This document shows positions 11,582 to 25,338 of a DNA stretch of 64,000 nucleotides, in pieces. The notes under the pieces are model-generated. The model searched no databases. It was not told the DNA's origin and worked only from the letters and a program-made list of their open reading frames with translations. Position 1 is the first letter of the stretch. Each line of letters opens with the position of its first letter. The DNA lies in assembly GCA_938086785.1 (NCBI GenBank), contig CALKCM010000003.1, forward strand, positions 155,104-219,103, given 5' to 3'. Position numbers and translations under genes: made by a program. This DNA comes from an uncultured Bacteroidia bacterium. GTDB lineage: Bacteria; Bacteroidota; Bacteroidia; NS11-12g; UBA955.

Positions 11582-13153
11582 TTAACTTAAATACTCCCAG
11601 AGCAATTCATTTCCAGAGCTAAAAATTTCTATAATTTGTTTTCTAGAGCCTATATGTAATGCATTGCATGAGTAGGAGAGTCCGTGTTGTTTTGCCAAGT
11701 ATTTGCAGCTTAAAAGATGTGGTGTTTGGATAAATTGTGCCATTTCTGGCATTTTCTTAGGCCCATCGATAAGGTTGAAAATATTCCCACCTCCGTTATT
11801 AAGTACTATTACCTGAAGGTTTAGAGGCTTTGGATTGCACCAAAAGGCATTGGAGTCGTACAAGAAACTTAAATCGCCTACAACGCAAGCTACCTTTTCA
11901 TTTGAATTGGATAGGGCATATCCTACTGCAGTAGATACGCAACCGTCTATTCCACTGGTTCCTCTGTTGCAAAAGACCTTCATCGCAGATTTAGGCAGTA
12001 AGCCTGCCAATCGAATTGGCGTGGAATTACCAATATGTAAAGCATCAAAATGACTGGCATAAATGGATTGAATACTACGTAATTCAACACTTAAATTTTG
12101 AGCTTCTTTAATTTTATATGAATTAGTCTGGAGTTTACTTATCCACGTTTGATTAAATGTTTTTTCATTTTTGTGTGTGGTAAGATATTCCAATATTTGG
12201 TCATTGGTATCGAATCTAATTGATTGAATATCAGTTTTAAATGGATTACCTACATACTGGTTAGTATGTACATGATAATGCATAATATTTGAATTTATTT
12301 GAATAAATTGTTTAAAACGTTTATTTACAAAATTCTTACCCAAAGTAATTAAAACATCAGGCACAGGTAATTTTTTTAAGCTTTGTGTATTCAGCTCCCA
12401 GCCATTAAGATTATCTATGATGCTATTTGAGGTTGCTTCTGTAAGTATAGGAAATTGATTTCTTAGTTTATTTAGATTTAAGATTCTTGACTCGCTGGGT
12501 TTGAGTTCACCAACAAATAAAACAATATTTGCATTGATGGGAATGGCTTGTGGAGTAGCCATTGATTTTCTTTCCAAAAAATGATCAAAGGATATGGAAT
12601 CTCCTTGCCATGCAGCATTTATTCCTTCGTAAATTGGATCGGCCAAGGGTATATTTACATGAATAGGTCCTTTATCCTGACTATTTATATCTACATGAAT
12701 TTGCTTGAGGAGTTTTTTTATTTCCCCTAAAGTCTTGCTTTGGTGCATATCGCCCTCCAGGGAGTGGGATGCTTTAATGTGTTGAGCAAATATATCATTT
12801 TGTCGAATGGTTTGTCCATCCCATTGATCAATTAGCTCTTTAGGTCTGTCTGCAGATAGCACGAGAAGCGGAATTTGGGCATAAAAGGCTTCACATATCG
12901 CGGGATAATAGTTTAACAGAGCTGTTCCTGATGTACATATGATACCGGTTGGTGTTTCAGCTATGTTGGCACCAAGCCCCATAAAGGCTGCGGAACGTTC
13001 ATCGGTTTGGCTTATTAATTTAAAGCCGCCTCTTTTTATAAATGAGGCTACTATAGGAGCATTTCTGCTTCCTGGTGAAACAATCCATTGCCGAATACCC
13101 ATTTGGTAAAATCCTTCAATAAGACTGTCAATATTTTTGCGAATATCTGCCAC
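11582..13153 (-). CDS. menD: 2-succinyl-5-enolpyruvyl-6-hydroxy-3-cyclohexene-1-carboxylate (SEPHCHC) synthase MenD
   Basis: ThDP-enzyme layout with GSRNAP near the N-terminus and GDLSFLYDSNA in the C-terminal ThDP-binding region. The GTG start overlaps the upstream stop by 1 nt (TAGTG). Confidence 0.85.
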   Translation of the reverse strand: MADIRKNIDSLIEGFYQMGIRQWIVSPGSRNAPIVASFIKRGGFKLISQTDERSAAFMGLGANIAETPTGIICTSGTALLNYYPAICEAFYAQIPLLVLSADRPKELIDQWDGQTIRQNDIFAQHIKASHSLEGDMHQSKTLGEIKKLLKQIHVDINSQDKGPIHVNIPLADPIYEGINAAWQGDSISFDHFLERKSMATPQAIPINANIVLFVGELKPSESRILNLNKLRNQFPILTEATSNSIIDNLNGWELNTQSLKKLPVPDVLITLGKNFVNKRFKQFIQINSNIMHYHVHTNQYVGNPFKTDIQSIRFDTNDQILEYLTTHKNEKTFNQTWISKLQTNSYKIKEAQNLSVELRSIQSIYASHFDALHIGNSTPIRLAGLLPKSAMKVFCNRGTSGIDGCVSTAVGYALSNSNEKVACVVGDLSFLYDSNAFWCNPKPLNLQVIVLNNGGGNIFNLIDGPKKMPEMAQFIQTPHLLSCKYLAKQHGLSYSCNALHIGSRKQIIEIFSSGNELLWEYLS

Positions 13154-13785
13154 TAAAAAAATGGATTGCTTGTTTTTTCTGATCCTATATCTGTTTCTGC
13201 TCCATGCCCAGAGAATATGGTATACTCATTGGGCAGCGTAAATAATTCGGATTTTATGCTGCTTATAAGCAGTTCATGATTTCCAAATGCTAAGTCTGTT
13301 CTTCCAATGCTGCCCTTAAATAACGTATCCCCGGCAATAATAGTTTTGCTTGCATGGTTTATGAATACAACATGGCCTGGCGCGTGGCCTGGTACAAATC
13401 GAATCTCTAAATCTGAATTGCCAAAGTTAAAGCCTGCATTAATGTTCATTTCTTTAGGCTCTACAAAGCTTGGGTTATAGGGCAAACCATACATTTGTGC
13501 CGTTTTTTCGGCATTGTTATAAATCACTAAATCTTCTGGATGAAGGTAAACATTCACAGGATATTTATCTGTAATGGATTTTAGACCCATGATGTGATCG
13601 ATGTGCGCATGGGTCAGAAGGATGCAATTGAGAATGAGATTTTCTTCATTGATAAAATCAATAATGGCCTTGTCTTCTGCTTGGTTCGAATTGCCGGGAT
13701 CAACCAAAACTGCTTCTTTGGAATCGTCGTATAGTAAATACGTGTTTTCCATAAAAGGGTTTAGACTCCATTTTTTTATTTTCAT
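13153..13785 (-). CDS. MBL-fold metallo-hydrolase (glyoxalase II / YcbL-like)
   Basis: THAHIDH metal motif, followed by downstream GHAPGH and a C-terminal SGHG. Confidence 0.85.
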   Translation of the reverse strand: MKIKKWSLNPFMENTYLLYDDSKEAVLVDPGNSNQAEDKAIIDFINEENLILNCILLTHAHIDHIMGLKSITDKYPVNVYLHPEDLVIYNNAEKTAQMYGLPYNPSFVEPKEMNINAGFNFGNSDLEIRFVPGHAPGHVVFINHASKTIIAGDTLFKGSIGRTDLAFGNHELLISSIKSELFTLPNEYTIFSGHGAETDIGSEKTSNPFF

Positions 13786-13888
13786 TCTAAGTGCAAATTA
13801 AAACAGAAAGAGCGATCTACGTTTAGTTTTTTGGAATACCGAATAAATTGTGGAACTCTTAAATGAAAACTATACGATCTTTGCAATA

Positions 13889-16132
13889 ATGGTGGTTTTA
13901 GATAGTCCTACGTATGCTCCTTATAAAGATAAGCTTCAGGAAAAGTATGACTATTTGTTAAGCTTGTTACACGATCGTGGAAAAAGCAAGCTTAAGAAGG
14001 TGGCGAAGGCTTTTGAAATGGCTGCCAATGCTCATGATGGAGTTAAACGCAAGAGTGGAGAACCTTATCTGTTCCATCCTTTAGAAGTAGCTATTATAGC
14101 GGTTGAAGTGCTCGGTTTAGGAAGCACAAGCGCAATTTGTTCCTTGTTGCATGACACGGTGGAGGATACTGAACTTACCTTGGAGGAGATTGAAACGGCT
14201 TTTGATCCAAAAATCAAGAATATTGTCGATGGACTTACAAAAATTTCTACGGTATTTGATACGGTTGAAAAGAATATAAGTATTCAGGCTGAGAACTTTA
14301 AGAAAATGCTTCTTACGCTAGGGGAAGATCTTAGGGTCATTTTAATTAAGTTATGTGATCGACTTCACAATATGCGAACCATTCATGCAGTATCGCAAAA
14401 AACACGTTTAAAAATCGCATCGGAGACCTTATATATTTATGCTCCCTTAGCTCATCGTTTGGGTCTAAATGTAGTAAAGTCAGAGCTTGAAGATTTATCT
14501 TTAGAGGTAACAGATCCATTGCTTTACATTGAGATTAAGACAAAATTAGAGGCGCAGAAACAGGATCGGGAGGATTATCTTAAGAGGTTTATTAAGCCCT
14601 TAAATGAGGAGCTTAATGCGTCTCAACTATCTGTATTTGATATCCAAAGTCGTACAAAAACGGTCTTTAGTATTGCGCAAAAAATGCGTAAACAGGGCAT
14701 TCCCTTTGAGGAGGTATACGATTTGTTTGCTATTCGAGTGATACTTGAGAGCCCCTTAAATCTCGAGAAAAACGATTGTTGGAGAGTATATGCAATTATA
14801 TCGCAGCAATACACTTCCAATCAAAGTCGCTTGCGTGACTGGCTTAGTAAGCCTAAGAGCAATGGATATGAGGCTTTGCATACCACTATTATAGGTCCAG
14901 ACAATAAGTATATTGAGGTTCAAATACGTAGCAAAAGAATGGATGATGTAGCCGAAAGAGGTGTTGCTGCTCATTGGAGATATAAATCTAAAGAGGGAGA
15001 ATTAAAGCCTAATGCGCAGGATATGGCTTTTGATCATTGGATGGCTCAAGTAAAGGAAACCATAAATAATAAAGACTTAAGCGCCATTGAATTAATCAAT
15101 GAGTTTAGATTTGGAATTTTAGCCGAAGATATCTTCATTTTTACACCAAAAGGGGAAGTAAAACGATTGTCAAAAGAAAGTACGGCCCTTGATTTTGCTT
15201 TTGCTATCCATACGGACGTGGGATACACGACTATTGGGGCTAAGGTGAATGGGAAATTAGTTCCAATTGGTACAGAACTAAGCAATAGTGATATTGTGGA
15301 GATCCTGACCACTTCTAAAAACAGGGTGAATTTAGACTGGCTTAAGATTGTTAAAACAGGGAAGGCTAGAAATAAGATAAAAGAATACCTTAACTCTCAA
15401 AAAAATGCGTTTAGTGCAGAAGGAAAAGAAATATTACAACGAAAATTTAAGTCGGCGAAACGTGCCTTCAATAATAGAAATGTAGAGCATTTTATAAAGT
15501 TTCACGGGTTTACTGTCCCCAATGATTTTTATCATGCCTTGGCCATGGGTGCCGTTAAACAAGAAAAGTTAAAGGTGGCTGCTTTTTTTAAAGGAAACCC
15601 AATTGAAAAGGTAAAAAAACAGCCGAAAAAAGGAGAGAGTAAGAGTTCATTTCCTTCAAAAAATAAGCTGAGTAGCGCTATTGTAGTGGGAGATGAGTAT
15701 GAGGTAGAATATGCCATGGCGGCATGTTGTAGTCCGGTTCCAGGAGATCAAATTTTTGGTTTTATTACAGTGAATGATGGAATTAAAATTCACCGAAGCA
15801 ATTGTTTAAATGCCACAAATTTAATGAGTGAATATGGCTATAGAATTGTTCATTGTAACTGGCGAGATAAGAGCTATGATCAATCGTTCATTAGTGAATT
15901 GATGGTAAATGGAATTGATGATGTGGGAATTGTGAGTAGTATTACCGATATCATTTCGAAAGATTTGGGTGTAAATATGCGCAGCATAAATATTAGAGCA
16001 GGATCTGAGGGGACTTTTGAGGGTGTGGTAGAGGTTATGGTCAAAAATCTATTTACCTTGGAAAAGCTAATTTCTACCATCCAAAATAAACATCAATATA
16101 TACAGGTAAAACGTTTAGATACTCTTAACTAA
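13889..16132 (+). CDS. relA: Bifunctional (p)ppGpp synthetase/hydrolase, RelA/SpoT (Rsh) family
   Basis: HD hydrolase domain (HPLEVA..LLHDTVEDT), synthetase domain, TGS domain and C-terminal ACT-like domain. First ATG is at 13889. The ORF also opens at GTG 13850. Confidence 0.93.
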   Translation: MVVLDSPTYAPYKDKLQEKYDYLLSLLHDRGKSKLKKVAKAFEMAANAHDGVKRKSGEPYLFHPLEVAIIAVEVLGLGSTSAICSLLHDTVEDTELTLEEIETAFDPKIKNIVDGLTKISTVFDTVEKNISIQAENFKKMLLTLGEDLRVILIKLCDRLHNMRTIHAVSQKTRLKIASETLYIYAPLAHRLGLNVVKSELEDLSLEVTDPLLYIEIKTKLEAQKQDREDYLKRFIKPLNEELNASQLSVFDIQSRTKTVFSIAQKMRKQGIPFEEVYDLFAIRVILESPLNLEKNDCWRVYAIISQQYTSNQSRLRDWLSKPKSNGYEALHTTIIGPDNKYIEVQIRSKRMDDVAERGVAAHWRYKSKEGELKPNAQDMAFDHWMAQVKETINNKDLSAIELINEFRFGILAEDIFIFTPKGEVKRLSKESTALDFAFAIHTDVGYTTIGAKVNGKLVPIGTELSNSDIVEILTTSKNRVNLDWLKIVKTGKARNKIKEYLNSQKNAFSAEGKEILQRKFKSAKRAFNNRNVEHFIKFHGFTVPNDFYHALAMGAVKQEKLKVAAFFKGNPIEKVKKQPKKGESKSSFPSKNKLSSAIVVGDEYEVEYAMAACCSPVPGDQIFGFITVNDGIKIHRSNCLNATNLMSEYGYRIVHCNWRDKSYDQSFISELMVNGIDDVGIVSSITDIISKDLGVNMRSINIRAGSEGTFEGVVEVMVKNLFTLEKLISTIQNKHQYIQVKRLDTLN

Positions 16133-17226
16133 AAGGGTTTTCCATGAGATTTACGAATCATCCATTTAGCGATAAACGGAAAGAGATGAGCTAATTGAAT
16201 AAATGCACTCATAATGAACGTTCTTCCAAAAATGTATTGAACAAAACGACCCAGTTTTATTCTTTGATTGAATTCCTTCTTCCACTGGATGGGGTATTGT
16301 GTTTTATTGTTTATTTGAGAGGCCAATAGGGCACTATGCATAGCCATACTCATCCCATTTCCACACAAGGGGGCAATAAGCCCAGCGGCATCTCCAAGCA
16401 TAAGAGCCTGGTTTTCACTTTTTGACTTATTTTGGAAGCTTATTTGTGAGATGGCTAAAGGCTGATCAAAAACAAACTGAGATTGGGTAAAAACATCTTT
16501 GATGAATGGATTCTTGTAGAGAAAGAGTTCCTCTGATTCCCGAACCGTTCTATTTTTGAGATTTTCGCTTCGCATAAGATAACAAATGCAAAAGGTATCG
16601 TTTTCAACCTTGCTCATTCCACAGTATCCATTTTTAAAGGTATGGAGGGATATCAAGTCTTTTTTCAATAGTTGAGATTTTACATGATATTTTATACCGA
16701 CCCAATTGGTTAACCTGCTTTTCTCATTTGAATAAAAGGGACGTTCCAGACTGTTATCTAACAGACTTCTTTTCCCCCATGCACCTATAACTTCTTTGGT
16801 GAGGTAGATGTTATTTTTTGTTCTTACTTCGTACAGATATTTATCTTTAGCGAAGGACAGTACGGTGTCTTTTAACCATTGACTGCCTGTATTTAAGCTC
16901 GCTTTTTTTAATTCGCTATCCATGAGGTATCGACTAATTCCAAAGCCTCCAAGCTCTAAGGGTAGGTCAATTGCTTTACCAGTTGGCTTACTTAATTGGA
17001 ACTGGTTTATTCTTGGAAGGTCAAAAGAATCTAAGGGAACTCCTAATCCCTTCATGAAATTATAGCTTTCCATGCTTACATACTCTCCACATACTTTATG
17101 CTTGGGGTATTCGTCTTTTTCAATAACTAATACGCTATATCCCTTTTGACCCATGAGGGTTGAAAAGGTACTGCCTGCAATCCCTCCGCCAATGACGATA
17201 TAGTCAAATACTTGCGATGATAACAT
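16129..17226 (-). CDS. FAD-dependent oxidoreductase / flavoprotein monooxygenase (SrsC/AgqB-like position in cluster)
   Basis: N-terminal DYIVIGGGIAGS dinucleotide-binding motif followed by VLVIEKD, and a later GDAAG motif. Overlaps the methyltransferase gene by 23 nt. Confidence 0.75.
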   Translation of the reverse strand: MLSSQVFDYIVIGGGIAGSTFSTLMGQKGYSVLVIEKDEYPKHKVCGEYVSMESYNFMKGLGVPLDSFDLPRINQFQLSKPTGKAIDLPLELGGFGISRYLMDSELKKASLNTGSQWLKDTVLSFAKDKYLYEVRTKNNIYLTKEVIGAWGKRSLLDNSLERPFYSNEKSRLTNWVGIKYHVKSQLLKKDLISLHTFKNGYCGMSKVENDTFCICYLMRSENLKNRTVRESEELFLYKNPFIKDVFTQSQFVFDQPLAISQISFQNKSKSENQALMLGDAAGLIAPLCGNGMSMAMHSALLASQINNKTQYPIQWKKEFNQRIKLGRFVQYIFGRTFIMSAFIQLAHLFPFIAKWMIRKSHGKPF

Positions 17227-17878
17227 AACGAAACATGGGTTTTTTGATGATGGAATAATTCGTATATCCAGCCACTGCTAACATTTGATTCCATTCGTTG
17301 AAAGAGTGTGCTCGTTTTACTGAAAGAGGAGCGTCATTTTTAAATAAATAGGAGAATGAAGGCCAAAGCTGAACAATATAAATCCCTAACCAAGCCCAGA
17401 AGCTTCTCTGCAAATCGTTGATCACTAAAATGGTTGAGTTTTGGGATGCCCATTTTAAAAAGGCAATATTTTCTTCTGGGTTTAAGTGATGGTTAAAAAG
17501 GGCCGTATGCATAAGTACCTTTTCTTTTGGTATTTGCGACTTTCTATAATCATTTGTGTGAAATTTTAAATTTGGATATTTCTCTGATGCATATTGGGTT
17601 GCTGCATGAGAAGAGTCAATGCCCTGGCCATCTTTTATTTTAAATTTTTTGCACAGTCTTGCAAGAGTATCTCCGCCTCCAGATCCCACATCGATTAGTT
17701 TAGTAATGGATGCCTTTTCGAACGCTTGACTTACGCCAAATGCACTTGCCTTGTATCCTCCGAGGTATTTATTTACCCAGTGCAGTTCCTTATAATTTTT
17801 ATAAAGGTCTTTTGCCGGAATAGTAGGCATATCCATAAGCTCTTTCGCATTATTTCTATGTTCTAAGGATTTAAACAC
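17204..17878 (-). CDS. Class I SAM-dependent methyltransferase
   Basis: SAM motif I LIDVGSGGGD. The GTG start overlaps the PKS stop by 8 nt. Confidence 0.8.
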   Translation of the reverse strand: MFKSLEHRNNAKELMDMPTIPAKDLYKNYKELHWVNKYLGGYKASAFGVSQAFEKASITKLIDVGSGGGDTLARLCKKFKIKDGQGIDSSHAATQYASEKYPNLKFHTNDYRKSQIPKEKVLMHTALFNHHLNPEENIAFLKWASQNSTILVINDLQRSFWAWLGIYIVQLWPSFSYLFKNDAPLSVKRAHSFNEWNQMLAVAGYTNYSIIKKPMFRYVIIASI

Positions 17879-18914
17879 GGGCAGTTATCATACTCTCTAA
17901 ACTTAGACCAGGTCCAAATGCTGCAGAGTAAATGGTTTCATTTTCTTTAGCCTGGGTGATAATTTCTTTTAGAACAAACAATACTGTGGGACTGCTCATG
18001 TTTCCATAAGACTGTAAGGTTTCATAAGAGACCTGTATTTGCTCTTTTTCTAAATGGAGTTCTTTCCCTATGTGATCCAGTATTTTTCGACCTCCGGGAT
18101 GAAATCCGAAATGGTCAATGGTATTTACTCCTATAGTATTTCTCCCATCTTCAATAAATCCTTGAATGGGTTCTGTTAATAAGTCTGGAATATAACTGCT
18201 TAGTTGCATCAGAAACCCATTTTCAGTAATGTTCCAAGACATGTCGCTCTGGCCCTTTAATGCCAATTGGCTATAAAACCCCTTGATGGCTAGTCTGCTT
18301 TGAGATTCTGGCTCTGCAGTAATAATACAGGCTGCAGCACCATCTGAAAATAGGGAGCACGCGGTTACTTGGTCCCAATGAATGTCATTTCGAAAATGCA
18401 ATGTACATAGCTCAACACTTACCACTAGAACCTTGGCCTTAGGCTCTGAGTTCGCAATACTATTTGCCCATTTTAATCCATGCATAGCAGCGTAACACCC
18501 CATAAAATTGATGCTGCTTCGGACTGTGTTTTCATTTAATCCTAAAGATACAATTAAATCAACATCTAAACCGGGTGCATACATTCCCGTACAACTAACT
18601 GTGATGATGTGCGTGATATCATCGAGGGTGTTTCTACCTAAACCTTTTATTGCTTTTAAACAAAGATTTACTGCTTCTTTGCGGTATAGATGCATGCGGT
18701 CTTGAACTCTCATTTGACTGAATCCATTTGTGGTTTCCTGAAAGTCTGAAAGACAGCTATATCTGTAATTTATGCCACTCTTGCCATAAATAAGTGCTAG
18801 CTTTCGATTAAATTCATCCTTTTGTTGATAGGAATTTGACATGAATTCGAGCAGTTCTGTCTGTTTGTATTTATGCGGCGGTAGGGCCGTTGCTATGTTC
18901 GATATATAACTCAA
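17871..18914 (-). CDS. Type III polyketide synthase (chalcone/stilbene synthase superfamily)
   Basis: Cys-His-Asn triad contexts are present: VSCTGMYAPGLD, FGFHPGGRKIL and YGNMSSPTVLFVL. I place the start at a TTG giving MSYISNIATALPPHKY. It overlaps the UbiA stop as TTGA. The long ORF start at 18962 would overlap UbiA by 52 nt. Confidence 0.9.
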   Translation of the reverse strand: MSYISNIATALPPHKYKQTELLEFMSNSYQQKDEFNRKLALIYGKSGINYRYSCLSDFQETTNGFSQMRVQDRMHLYRKEAVNLCLKAIKGLGRNTLDDITHIITVSCTGMYAPGLDVDLIVSLGLNENTVRSSINFMGCYAAMHGLKWANSIANSEPKAKVLVVSVELCTLHFRNDIHWDQVTACSLFSDGAAACIITAEPESQSRLAIKGFYSQLALKGQSDMSWNITENGFLMQLSSYIPDLLTEPIQGFIEDGRNTIGVNTIDHFGFHPGGRKILDHIGKELHLEKEQIQVSYETLQSYGNMSSPTVLFVLKEIITQAKENETIYSAAFGPGLSLESMITARV

Positions 18915-19783
18915 TGATTCAATTTTAAAATTAATAATGAAACCACCATTAAATTCATGCACAAGGCGCTTAAAAGAATGGCTCTCATGGTGTTTTTATA
19001 ATTGGCTTCTGCTTTATTTTTCAAGCATAAGTATTGCCAATAAATGAAATAACCAATACTAGGCAAAAGGAACGCTAAAGGGTACATCCAAAAAGTGGAG
19101 AATAGTTCTAAACTACTAAAAAAGAGCAGTCCAAGAAATCCAGCAATAAACAATATGCCACTAAAAATAAAGGTGCCTTGCACTCCTAAAACCATGCTTA
19201 GTGTTTTTACTCCATCTCTTTGATCTGTATCATGCTGATATATTTGAGTGAGGGGATAGGCTCCTCCAAAAAGAAGGCTGCTAATTAGTGCCATTTTTAT
19301 ATGATTCTCTTCGAATATATTCCCTCCGATGCTTGAAATAACAGTTAGATATATTAAAGCACCTTGGAACAGAAATACCGTTAAAAATCCCAAAATAGGA
19401 TGCTTTTTTAAGCGTATTTTCCGCCAACTATACACTTTTGACGCTCCTATGTAGACTAATATCAATACAAAAGTACTTTTTGGGCAATACAAGGCGATGA
19501 GTAACAGCCCGACTAAATCAAAAAGAACGGTAGTGTAAAAAAGGTCCTTAGAAGTGGGCAGAGGTGATTTTATTAACCCAATACTGCCTGTGTCCTTATC
19601 TTGATAGCTATTATAGGCATTGCTTGAAGGGTAGATGAATACATGTAAGCTAATAAAAAGTATGATAAGTGCTGGCGTGCTGGCACTTAGCAATGCTTGC
19701 GGTGCAATAAGTACGGCCAGAACAAAAACGGGCATGAGTAAAAACGAAAATGGAAACCTGAGGTGTTGGAGAATACTATGCAT
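18911..19783 (-). CDS. UbiA-family aromatic prenyltransferase (integral membrane)
   Basis: About 8 TM helices. Asp-rich motifs NSYQDKDTG and YQHDTDQRDG sit at the positions typical of UbiA enzymes. The ATG overlaps the upstream stop by 8 nt. Confidence 0.8.
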   Translation of the reverse strand: MHSILQHLRFPFSFLLMPVFVLAVLIAPQALLSASTPALIILFISLHVFIYPSSNAYNSYQDKDTGSIGLIKSPLPTSKDLFYTTVLFDLVGLLLIALYCPKSTFVLILVYIGASKVYSWRKIRLKKHPILGFLTVFLFQGALIYLTVISSIGGNIFEENHIKMALISSLLFGGAYPLTQIYQHDTDQRDGVKTLSMVLGVQGTFIFSGILFIAGFLGLLFFSSLELFSTFWMYPLAFLLPSIGYFIYWQYLCLKNKAEANYKNTMRAILLSALCMNLMVVSLLILKLNH

Positions 19784-20432
19784 CGTGTTTCTTTTTAAAG
19801 TACTTCATCCATTTTCTTCCATCACTTACATAGGTCTTGGAATGGGTTTTAATCCGCCTGTTTTTACCTATTACTTTACCGGTATTGTGATAATGAAAAG
19901 CATCACTATATCTATCTTTTTTTAATAAATGTCCATACTCATTCGCAATCCATTTCATGCCATGCTTTACTGCTGCAGGCCCTCGCAAGTCCTTAATTAG
20001 TATTCCTTCTTGAACAACTTTATAGCCCATGATTTGAAAGGGTCCCCAACTACTGGCTAAATTCTTGATTGCTGATTCATTGGCATCCTTAAGCGTTTCG
20101 ATGGTTACTTTCTCATAATGCGTTCTTTTCCCTGCTTTAAGGTTCATTAACCGACGATAGATATGCTTTTCAAAGCGACTGGGCGAGGGTCTGCGCCCCC
20201 CGCATTCAAGCATGCAAAGAGCCATAAAGTATTCTGGATTTAAACCTAATCGATTCGCTTCCTTATAAATTTCTTTTGAATAATTATCAATAACCTGATT
20301 AGACCCAATGGCATGATTGTTTTTTCTAGGCGGCAGTTTGCTCTCTCTCCAAATTAAAAAGATGCTCAAACTCAATAAAAAAATAAGGAAGAAAAAAATA
20401 ATTGTTCGAATTCGATTATTATTTGATACCAT
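19776..20432 (-). CDS. Membrane-anchored N-acetylmuramidase-family (peptidoglycan hydrolase-like) protein
   Basis: N-terminal TM anchor. MLECGGRRPSPSRFEKHIYRRL and SWGPFQIMGY match the conserved Glu and FQIMG blocks of the N-acetylmuramidase family. First ATG is at 20432. The GTG at 20444 lies inside the predicted -7 box. Confidence 0.6.
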   Translation of the reverse strand: MVSNNNRIRTIIFFFLIFLLSLSIFLIWRESKLPPRKNNHAIGSNQVIDNYSKEIYKEANRLGLNPEYFMALCMLECGGRRPSPSRFEKHIYRRLMNLKAGKRTHYEKVTIETLKDANESAIKNLASSWGPFQIMGYKVVQEGILIKDLRGPAAVKHGMKWIANEYGHLLKKDRYSDAFHYHNTGKVIGKNRRIKTHSKTYVSDGRKWMKYFKKKHDA

Positions 20433-20443
20433 TTGATGCTTCA

Positions 20444-20451
20444 CAAATGTA
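20444..20451 (-). promoter_or_regulatory. Bacteroidota-type -7 promoter box (TACATTTG) for the muramidase-UbiA-PKS-MT-FAD operon
   Basis: Exact TAnnTTTG match on the minus strand, 11 nt upstream of ATG 20432. Confidence 0.5.
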
Positions 20452-20548: not shown

Positions 20549-21028
20549 ATGAAAAAGAATAAATGGTTAATTATGTTATGTCTAGCGGGGGTATTCGTTT
20601 TTGCGGCATGCAAGAAAGACAAAGTTGAGGATGGATCAAATAATGGTTCAGGCAATGTTACTACAGAGGGCAAGAACAAAATGGAAATTGTTATGATGCA
20701 GAACTGGAGATGGGCTGACGAGTTGGATAGTGCAGAAAACGGAACTGAATGGGTATCTAACATGTTAGACTGCAATAAAGACGATGTTTATACCTTTAAA
20801 GCAGCAGGTGTTGTAACAATTAACGAAGGAATCGATGATTGTGATCCAGGCATAGGCCAAGAATATAATAGCACTTGGAGTATGCAAAATGGTACCAGTA
20901 ATTACATTAAGGTGCATGAAATTCAATGGAAAATTGTATCTCAAACGAATAATGAAATGATTTTTGAAAGAACCTATAATCCAGGTAGTGAGGATCACCT
21001 CATTCGACAATATTGGAAAAAGAATTAA
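20549..21028 (+). CDS. Lipocalin-like domain lipoprotein
   Basis: Lipoprotein signal MKKNKWLIMLCLAGVFVFAAC. The pattern C..DDVYTF...G......C fits the bacterial lipocalin-like domain. Start set at ATG 20549. Confidence 0.6.
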   Translation: MKKNKWLIMLCLAGVFVFAACKKDKVEDGSNNGSGNVTTEGKNKMEIVMMQNWRWADELDSAENGTEWVSNMLDCNKDDVYTFKAAGVVTINEGIDDCDPGIGQEYNSTWSMQNGTSNYIKVHEIQWKIVSQTNNEMIFERTYNPGSEDHLIRQYWKKN

Positions 21029-24852: not shown

Positions 24853-24855
24853 CAG

Positions 24856-25242
24856 AGGCAGTTCAGTTCATCGCTTGCGCAAGCAAGAGGAAAGTCTGGG
24901 CAACGCAGGGCACCATGCTTCTTAACGGGAAGGCGTTTTGTGGCAACACAAATCGACAGATAGTATCGCAGAAAGGTAAACCGCCAAACCATTTTGGTTA
25001 GGTAAGGGTGAAAAAGAGGTGTAAGAGACCCCTCGTTCGCGACGTGAGTTGCAAATTGAGAGAAACCTCATGGGTTGAAAAACCAAATAAACCGAGGGCA
25101 ATGACGGCTCGTTAGTGGAAACCTTAAAAGGTGGAAGTCTCGGAGGGTAGGTTGATGGATTCTAAAAGTGATTTTAGAACTAGATAAATGATGAACATCT
25201 CAATGTGAATTGAGTTACAGAACCCGGCTTATGGACTGCCTT
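24856..25242 (+). ncRNA. rnpB: RNase P RNA, bacterial type A
   Basis: Universal P4 strands are present: AGAGGAAAGTCTGGGC (5') and ACAGAACCCGGCTTA (3'). Terminal P1 pairing is AGGCAGTTC / GGACTGCCT, followed by a T-run. No credible protein coding. Confidence 0.92.
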
Positions 25243-25338
25243 TTTAAATGTTAGTAGCGCTTCTGGAAATTGTGTAAAACTTTAATTGGACATTTGCTTG
25301 AAAAACAAAGCATGTAATTATTAATATTGCATTTAAGA

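Follow-up and report, generated by a model that had tools for sequence, protein, structure and literature searches.

Does a peptidoglycan-directed protein encoded at the head of a phenolic-lipid gene cluster take part in the pathway of that cluster, or does it share with it only a transcript? The question is raised by a five-gene operon on the minus strand of a 64,000-nt stretch of DNA from an uncultured Bacteroidia bacterium (NS11-12g, UBA955; assembly GCA_938086785.1, contig CALKCM010000003.1, positions 155,104 to 219,103), referred to here as the window. In order of transcription, the operon encodes a muramidase-like protein (P1), a UbiA-superfamily prenyltransferase (UbiA), a type III polyketide synthase (PKS), a class I S-adenosylmethionine (SAM)-dependent methyltransferase (MT), and a flavin adenine dinucleotide (FAD)-dependent oxidoreductase (the flavoprotein, gene fad). 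A first-pass annotation, made from the sequence alone, described it as a cluster resembling the srs and agq clusters with a cell-wall hydrolase attached and took the translational linkage of P1 to the other genes as a sign of a functional tie between the lipid and peptidoglycan remodelling. The analysis presented here favors a different account, to which we assign a probability of about 0.62, namely, that a single transcription unit has arisen in this lineage through the fusion of two units of different origin. The unit at 16129-19783 would be a Bacteroidota-wide four-gene cassette carrying out the predicted phenolic-lipid pathway, and that at 19776-20432 would be P1, a putative glycosidase.

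All five open reading frames (ORFs) were confirmed on the minus strand between positions 16129 and 20432, or 16129 and 20444 if the longest ORFs are taken, and a reading of the junctions bore out the chain of overlaps of 8 nt, TTGA, 8 nt, and 23 nt that had been proposed. Specifically, the stop of P1 and the start of ubiA overlap by 8 nt (ATGCATAG); ubiA and the PKS gene share the 4 nt TTGA, given a PKS start at TTG 18914; the PKS and MT genes overlap by 8 nt, given an MT start at GTG 17878; and the MT and flavoprotein genes overlap by 23 nt. The longest PKS ORF opens at GTG 18962; TTG 18914 is favored because it fits the N termini of the homologs, which have the consensus MSxIxxIxTAxP and one of which is exactly 347 aa long. 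Similarly, GTG 17878 is supported because a conserved R8...ELMD stretch of the MT lies upstream of the first ATG, and P1 probably starts at ATG 20432, given that its homologs begin with MxSN.. or MAK... The gene calls on related public contigs give a PKS of 363 aa, from the upstream GTG, and an MT of 210 aa, from an internal ATG, whereas homology favors 347 and 224 aa, respectively.

The distribution of the gene set beyond the window was assessed with a scan based on the PKS alignment, covering one genome per GTDB species, and with tblastn searches of the five window proteins against the best 80 PKS loci, all of which are from Bacteroidota. The scan found relatives of the PKS in at least 598 genomes, and no PKS closer than 46-47% identity to that of the window was present among the GTDB representatives scanned. 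The best 80 loci include members of Chitinophagaceae, Cytophagales, Sphingobacteriales, and Chryseolinea. In 38 of these, ubiA, pks, mt, and fad follow one another in the same order as in the window; another 17 have the arrangement fad, ubiA (in minus orientation), pks, mt; and ubiA is missing from 7 loci with fad-pks-mt and from a single one with pks-mt-fad. The loci outside the main arrangements are mostly truncated contigs. The ubiA gene adjoins the PKS gene in 67 of the 80 loci, the MT gene lies downstream of the PKS gene in most of them, and the trio of PKS, MT, and flavoprotein genes is likewise kept in most. No fifth conserved gene was found to flank the cassette, any flanking family being common to at most 6 of the 38 loci with the canonical order. 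The gene set can be considered nonrandom because it is conserved across genomes, not because of the motifs in its products. The co-occurrence of the cassette genes and the families of the encoded enzymes are shown directly by the analysis and, judged by this recurrence, the last four genes of the operon are a self-contained cassette across Bacteroidota. Far from being rare, this cassette ranks, in Bacteroidota, among the most common conserved gene sets of this type. No paper on the Bacteroidota cassette, and no relevant one on type III PKSs of Cytophaga together with prenyltransferases, was found in the searchable literature.

The distribution of the join between P1 and the cassette is far more restricted. 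The five-gene layout recurs only in the clade of the window, which comprises the loci L005/L006 (about 87% identity), L090 (72% identity for the PKS), and L091/L007 (64% for the PKS and 55% for P1). Across this clade, the neighborhood is syntenic throughout, with PFK, RecN, (SBF), a lipoprotein, P1, the cassette, RelA, MBL, and MenD following one another. In L091, the start of ubiA, reread on the basis of the conserved N terminus, is probably a TTG that overlaps the P1 stop rather than the called ATG. No P1 homolog is encoded within 8 kb of the cassette in any of the 80 other Bacteroidota loci and, at the locus with the next closest PKS (48% identity), ubiA is the first gene of the cassette and lies behind an unrelated divergent gene. 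Conversely, the P1 homologs outside the clade (six loci representing four distinct contexts) have unrelated neighbors. In Sanyastnella, the P1 homolog stands alone; in other Bacteroidia, a glycosyltransferase gene lies downstream; and in loci of the Bacteroidales type (L002/L003, 8001-11285; L004, 8001-11074), the P1 homolog is followed on the same strand by genes for a MoxR-type AAA ATPase and an OstA_2 (LptD-N-like) protein, a trio that recurs and has no relation to the PKS cassette. The earlier suggestion that the translational link hints at a tie between the lipid and peptidoglycan is weakened by this comparison, the link being confined to one clade with a syntenic neighborhood. The join of P1 to the cassette, as far as the compared loci tell, is real but local, and may be incidental.

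Within the window, the five genes nevertheless appear to be expressed together. An exact match to the Bacteroidota-type promoter element TAnnTTTG, TACATTTG, is located upstream of P1 at 20444-20451 on the minus strand and would serve as its promoter; the element ends on the G of the GTG start of the longest P1 ORF, and ATG 20432 is 11 nt downstream. By itself, the TAnnTTTG motif is not evidence because its 89 occurrences in the window are at the chance level (87 +/- 9.5 expected). However, the identical octamer precedes P1 in all four clade loci (the window, L005, L090, and L091), with the flanking intergenic DNA diverged. The TACATTTG box is probably real because the octamer was kept in these four related loci while the spacer changed. 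Thus, the element that the first-pass annotation had pointed out upstream of the first gene holds as an exact and clade-conserved match, but it loses weight through the chance-level count and through a second exact copy, on the minus strand inside ubiA (19468-19475). In none of the four clade loci does a TAnnTTTG lie between the start codon of P1 and that of ubiA. In cassettes elsewhere, TAnnTTTG precedes ubiA in 8 of 45 cases, compared with 2 of 45 in a coding-region control, a difference too weak for use. Scans for sigma-70-type promoters and intrinsic terminators, which are uninformative for Bacteroidota, detected no excess of internal sites, with counts at or below the shuffled expectation. 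The overlap chain, combined with the lack of detectable internal signals, makes it likely that the five genes are co-transcribed in the window; an internal promoter or terminator, which had been named at the outset as a finding that would undo the operon, is not indicated by the scans, and ubiA has no TAnnTTTG of its own. A functional tie between P1 and the lipid does not follow from the likely co-transcription.

The type III PKS of the cassette (347 aa from TTG; 17871-18914, minus strand) contains the Chal_sti_synt_N and Chal_sti_synt_C domains (PF00195, 93.9 bits; PF02797, 75 bits; cut-off 27 for each). The catalytic triad recognized from the sequence at first, Cys140 (NFMGCYAA), His272 (HPGG), and Asn305 (GNMSS), proved to be invariant in 19 to 81 homologs. 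The closest solved structures are those of Steely1, Mycobacterium tuberculosis PKS18, and 4b0n ('polyketide synthase III'); plant chalcone synthases rank lower. Assignment of the PKS to DpgA was rejected, with a score of 125 bits against a cut-off of 425.

UbiA (290 aa; 18911-19783, minus strand) belongs to a divergent subfamily of UbiA-superfamily membrane prenyltransferases, matching PF01040 over residues 16-260 with 65.7 bits (cut-off 34.2) and reaching no NCBIfam equivalog. Both Asp-rich motifs had been ascribed to this protein, and both motif regions are indeed present within the Pfam family match, but neither has the canonical form, NDxxDxxxD or DxxxD. The first motif is N58-S-Y-x-D62-x-D64 (that is, N-x3-D-x-D), and the second is Y182-Q-H-x2-D187-x2-(D/R)190, with D190 in the window. 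Across 68 cassette UbiA homologs, N55, N58, D62, D64, R124, K126, and D187 are invariant, so that the motifs represent a conserved variant and not decay.

The MT (224 aa from GTG; 17204-17878, minus strand) is a class I SAM-dependent enzyme that matches Methyltransf_25 with 31.1 bits (cut-off 27), the only other Pfam matches being Methyltransf_2 and Methyltransf_31; a match to NF004851/PRK06202 (E=4e-23) is below the cut-off. The SAM motif I noted previously is present and conserved, as LIDVGSGGGD. The flavoprotein (365 aa; 16129-17226, minus strand), a predicted ring hydroxylase, is a geranylgeranyl-reductase-like FAD-dependent oxidoreductase that matches FAD_binding_3 with 32.4 bits (cut-off 22). 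Its score against the geranylgeranyl reductase (GGR) model TIGR02032 is 98.7 bits, short of the cut-off of 158.8, and weaker NCBIfam matches include QhpG, LodB, MenJ, and halogenases. The GxGxxG motif described at first was confirmed as GGGIAG, and homologs conserve both GDAAG...P.CGNG and an invariant KVCGE, which we take to resemble the cysteine motif of GGR. Because the flavoprotein sits in a GGR-like branch, we only infer that it is a hydroxylase.

Plasmid-borne relatives in Alphaproteobacteria bear on the role of this protein. A cassette on a Paracoccus plasmid has the PKS-MT-FAD order (MT, 25% identity, E=3e-13; flavoprotein, 26% identity, E=3e-37), and one on a Novosphingobium plasmid encodes a PKS with 35% identity (E=3e-58) and a homologous FAD monooxygenase. 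No UbiA is annotated alongside the PKS in either cassette, and a tblastn search of UbiA against plasmids gave no match and thus no evidence of a plasmid-borne UbiA gene. The flavoprotein appears to track the polyketide and not the prenyl group because it is kept with the PKS where no UbiA gene is nearby; for the same reason, ring hydroxylation is preferred to prenyl reduction as its predicted activity. In the Novosphingobium pentaromativorans plasmid pLA3 (L095, 2413-6056), genes for an acyl carrier protein (ACP) and a ketoacyl-ACP synthase (KAS) directly precede those for the type III PKS and the FAD monooxygenase. This variant suggests a dedicated supply of starter units, for which the Bacteroidota cassette has no counterpart.

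P1 (19776-20432, minus strand) is a 218-aa bitopic membrane protein with a predicted lysozyme-like domain. It has no Pfam or NCBIfam match at E<=0.01, and its similarity to the PF11860 Muramidase family (E=0.027, 15.2 bits) falls under the gathering cut-off of 22.3, but it matches the PHROG endolysin family phrog_2860 (E=1e-4). The homologs of P1 make up about 200-460 clusters of 'hypothetical' Bacteroidota proteins and, among 40 members of the family, 27 match PF11860 at E<=0.1, the best at 8.3e-5. E76 (in LE[CS]xG), E88, the motifs SWGPFQxMGYK and AFHxHNxG, and Y201 are invariant in 40 homologs, and H90 (in FExH) is nearly so. The AlphaFold (AF2) model built on the family alignment, with a predicted local distance difference test score (pLDDT) of 93.2, has an N-terminal transmembrane helix at about residues 5-30, followed by a lysozyme-like domain that is all-alpha apart from a small beta element. 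In the family, a strongly basic N terminus precedes the hydrophobic helix, which suggests a topology with the N terminus inside and the domain in the periplasm.

In Foldseek searches against the PDB, the best matches to the model of P1 are the PF11860 endolysins AP3gp15 (5nm7), LysT84 (7rum), and Pae87 (7q4s/7q4t), with E values of 6.5e-4 to 9e-3, followed by goose-type lysozymes and the lytic transglycosylases MltE/Slt; in a viral structure library, SLT, LT_GEWL, and muramidase domains match equally. Such structure matches do not distinguish hydrolase from lytic transglycosylase chemistry. In a profile alignment of P1 with Pae87, the PDB chain of which carries a 20-residue tag, E76, E88, and H90 correspond to Glu29, Glu46, and His48, respectively. 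Glu29 and Glu46/His48 were identified as the catalytic residues of Pae87 by mutagenesis (PMC8972805), and E76, E88, and H90 are, by this alignment, candidate catalytic residues of P1. In addition to the lysozyme-like fold and the Glu/Glu/His positions, P1 has in common with these endolysins the SWGxFQxMG motif. It differs from them in being cellular rather than phage-encoded and in its N-terminal membrane anchor, the endolysins having either PG_binding_1 or no domain in that position. A tblastn search of P1 against phages detected no homolog and, hence, there is no evidence of prophage origin.

A relative of the P1 domain, the 361-aa protein P0270, is a natural fusion with a YkuD/YkuD_2 L,D-transpeptidase domain and provides independent support for a role related to peptidoglycan. 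The confident model, the conserved Glu/Glu/His, and this fusion all point to P1 being a peptidoglycan glycosidase that belongs to the lysozyme superfamily, is anchored in the membrane, and is predicted to be remotely related to PF11860. The initial description of the first gene as muramidase-like is thus upheld by the predicted fold, the membrane anchor, and the retained catalytic residues, although not by the PF11860 score. A second tier of P1-like proteins, 300-500 aa long, has the P1-like domain at the N terminus and C-terminal regions with no Pfam match.

Divergently from P1, the window encodes a lipoprotein of 159 aa (20549-21028, plus strand) with a weak lipocalin-like signal (Lipocalin_4, E=0.0015, below the cut-off). 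Homologs of this lipoprotein are divergent from P1 in L005 (7405-7851), L090 (3936-4409), L091 (3927-4406), and L008 (5811-6263). In L008, the lipoprotein gene (24% identity) adjoins P1 in the absence of the PKS cassette, which makes it a neighbor of P1 and not of the cassette. By analogy with lipoprotein lysozyme inhibitors, one might speculate that it is a partner or inhibitor of P1.

To place the cassette among known systems, we compared it with the agq, srs, and hid clusters by their composition as described in the literature. The agqABCD cluster of Actinoplanes missouriensis, which produces alkyl-O-dihydrogeranyl-methoxyhydroquinones (Awakawa et al. 2011, cited in PMC10896814), has the same four-part make-up, consisting of a type III PKS, an oxygenase, a methyltransferase, and a UbiA-like prenyltransferase. 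The predicted logic is also alike, in that hydroxylation, methylation, and prenylation follow the formation of an alkylresorcinol; according to the account in PMC10896814, AgqA is an alkylresorcinol synthase the products of which are prenylated and hydroxylated. Unlike agqABCD, the window belongs to another phylum, its UbiA has the N-x3-D-x-D motif, and a muramidase-like gene lies ahead in the operon. The agq-like make-up with a UbiA, which the first-pass annotation had put forward, can be retained as a statement of composition, given that ubiA adjoins the PKS gene in the window and in the large majority of the compared loci.

The srsABC operon of Streptomyces griseus, which makes alkylresorcinols and alkylquinones (Funabashi et al. 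2008), shares with the cassette the order of PKS, MT, and oxygenase genes, and its PKS is a fatty-acyl-primed type III enzyme, but it lacks a prenyltransferase. The products of SrsA and FtpA are oxidized to alkylquinones (as cited in PMC10896814). Orthologs with 51-63% identity to the srs operon have been annotated as stilbene synthase, isoprenylcysteine carboxyl methyltransferase (ICMT), and monooxygenase (PMC6669644). Thus, SrsB orthologs are membrane enzymes of the ICMT type, whereas the MT of the window is a soluble class I Rossmann enzyme, so that the methylation step would be analogous but not orthologous. The cassette as a strict srs ortholog was rejected on this account, the SrsB-type methyltransferase being ICMT and that of the window Methyltransf_25. 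Of the proposed srs composition, the contiguous PKS, MT, and flavoprotein genes stand; the MT is not of the SrsB type, and the hydroxylase role of the flavoprotein is a prediction.

The core trio has its counterpart in hidABC of picocyanobacteria and in the Planctomycetota mtr-fdo-t3pks operons, where it is likewise widespread within a phylum. On heterologous expression, hidABC and the Planctomycetota operons gave alkylresorcinols of the pentadecyl and heptadecyl types, with the role of the oxidoreductase still unresolved (PMC10896814). These clusters differ from the cassette in the gene order, which is MT, oxidoreductase, PKS, and in lacking UbiA; the one reported exception among cyanobacteria is a hid-like cluster of Raphidiopsis that includes a prenyltransferase gene (PMC8086630). 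Overall, the cassette is an uncharacterized, phylum-wide relative of the phenolic-lipid clusters, with an agq-like composition and a hid-like core trio. Near the cassette in 5 of the 38 canonical loci (L087, 5183-5725, and four others), motifs read by eye mark a gene for a YceI-like (polyisoprenoid-binding) lipoprotein, which recalls the gene for a 'lipid/isoprenoid-binding protein' in the type III PKS operon of 'Saltatorellus ferox'.

By analogy with these systems, we infer all the chemical steps of the cassette pathway. The PKS would take a fatty acyl thioester supplied by primary metabolism as its starter and elongate it with malonyl-CoA; cyclization of the resulting chain by the enzyme would give an alkyl-phenol, most probably a 5-alkylresorcinol. 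The flavoprotein would hydroxylate the ring, the class I SAM methyltransferase would methylate it, and the membrane UbiA-family enzyme would add an isoprenoid chain, yielding a membrane-located, prenylated, and methylated alkyl-(hydro)quinol or resorcinol lipid. In the clade of the window, the cassette would be transcribed from the P1 promoter with its TACATTTG box. It is simplest to see the arrangement as an operon fusion specific to this lineage, through which the cassette would be expressed in the manner of an envelope housekeeping gene; the lipid and the muramidase need not depend on each other mechanistically. Several points weigh against this account. All four clade loci retain the P1-ubiA overlap (8, 8, 8, and 4 nt) down to 55% P1 identity, a degree of conservation that goes beyond mere adjacency and would fit selection for coupled expression; a nonconsensus internal promoter might lie within P1; resorcinol and pyrone cyclization by the PKS are indistinguishable from sequence; the Asp motifs of UbiA are noncanonical; and the flavoprotein, for which the best, if sub-cut-off, model is a GGR and which keeps the GGR-like VCGE cysteine, could be a reductase.

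The persistence of the stop/start overlap through divergence to 55-64% identity, along with the lack of an independent promoter motif for ubiA, also speaks for a functional coupling of the muramidase-like P1 with the phenolic lipid, whereby the lipid would modulate or localize cleavage, or protect the envelope, and the linkage would have been selected. Such coupling is in line with both products acting at the cytoplasmic membrane and in the periplasm, and with the increased beta-lactam sensitivity of S. griseus upon inactivation of srsA (as cited in PMC10896814). We nevertheless consider it quite unlikely, given that none of the 80 cassettes elsewhere has P1 nearby, that P1 family members turn up without the cassette in other genomes and contexts (in Sanyastnella, in Bacteroidales next to MoxR and OstA_2 genes, and elsewhere), and that, with the whole neighborhood of the clade syntenic, adjacency adds little beyond shared descent. 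A further alternative, unlikely but to be taken seriously, concerns the chemistry itself: the PKS would make alkylpyrones or acyl-phloroglucinol-type products, and/or the flavoprotein would saturate the prenyl chain added by UbiA instead of hydroxylating the ring. The structural neighbors of the PKS, Steely1 and the pyrone-forming PKS18, fit this possibility, as do the top rank of TIGR02032 among the flavoprotein models, the presence of MenJ and archaeal lipid reductases among the matches, and the dihydrogeranyl, that is, reduced prenyl, group of the agq products (title of Awakawa 2011, cited in PMC10896814). Yet the GGR-type scores are all well under their cut-offs, the same superfamily branch holds true hydroxylases (QhpG and LodB), and the flavoprotein is kept with no UbiA nearby in 8 of the 80 loci, as well as in Paracoccus and Novosphingobium. 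Moreover, an MT and an oxygenase suit a phenol and would be less obviously useful on a pyrone.

The enzyme families of the cassette, UbiA, SAM methyltransferase, and FAD hydroxylase, are those of the ubiquinone pathway, and weak NCBIfam matches to UbiG, UbiE, and UbiH/F were obtained, which raises the possibility that the cassette makes a polyketide-derived prenylated benzoquinone serving as a redox carrier, in place of a lipid with a structural or protective role. However, the scores of all the Ubi models are far under the cut-offs. The cassette has a wide vertical distribution in Cytophagales and Chitinophagaceae, which are largely aerobic; it is also absent from many Bacteroidota and has variable flanks, as would befit an accessory module. 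Mycobacterial quinones derived from type III PKSs are electron carriers (Anand 2015, as cited in PMC10896814), but the cassette showed no link to respiratory genes apart from a menD at a distance of 3 kb, which is incidental and limited to this clade. Altogether, a redox carrier appears to be a long shot. Taken as one proposition, that the fusion reflects a true functional link, with the lipid needed where or when the wall is cut, or that the cassette makes a respiratory polyketide prenylquinone, is decidedly improbable. If the functional link were true, the lipid may be a membrane-protective or redox-active cofactor of envelope remodelling, and the operon would offer the first genetic handle on the long-unexplained connection between alkylresorcinols or alkylquinones and cell-wall stress, as manifested in the srs beta-lactam phenotype.

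The remaining surroundings of the operon are as follows. A relA/spoT-type gene on the plus strand (13850-16132) is convergent with the flavoprotein gene and, because the two coding regions overlap by 4 nt (16129-16132), there is no space for an intergenic terminator after the latter. Farther on, an MBL-fold hydrolase gene and a menD-like gene for a thiamine pyrophosphate enzyme occupy 11582-13785 on the minus strand, with a 1-nt stop/start overlap at 13153; the synteny of these surroundings is limited to the clade. The sole Rfam match in the window at the gathering threshold is a class A RNase P RNA at 24854-25247 on the plus strand (223.5 bits), with no match near the operon. The GC content is uniform and hence gives no sign of recent transfer.

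Returning to the operon fusion favored here, its biological meaning differs among the parts. The fusion itself is a testable hint that a phenolic lipid and wall remodelling may be co-regulated, which the comparative evidence marks as local and maybe incidental. P1 is a candidate housekeeping peptidoglycan glycosidase, and its family, an unannotated branch of a known enzyme superfamily, brings to light membrane-anchored lysozyme-like enzymes of Bacteroidota that current Pfam and NCBIfam models miss. The product of the cassette, for its part, would be a phylum-typical membrane lipid of Bacteroidota and makes a reasonable target for heterologous expression.

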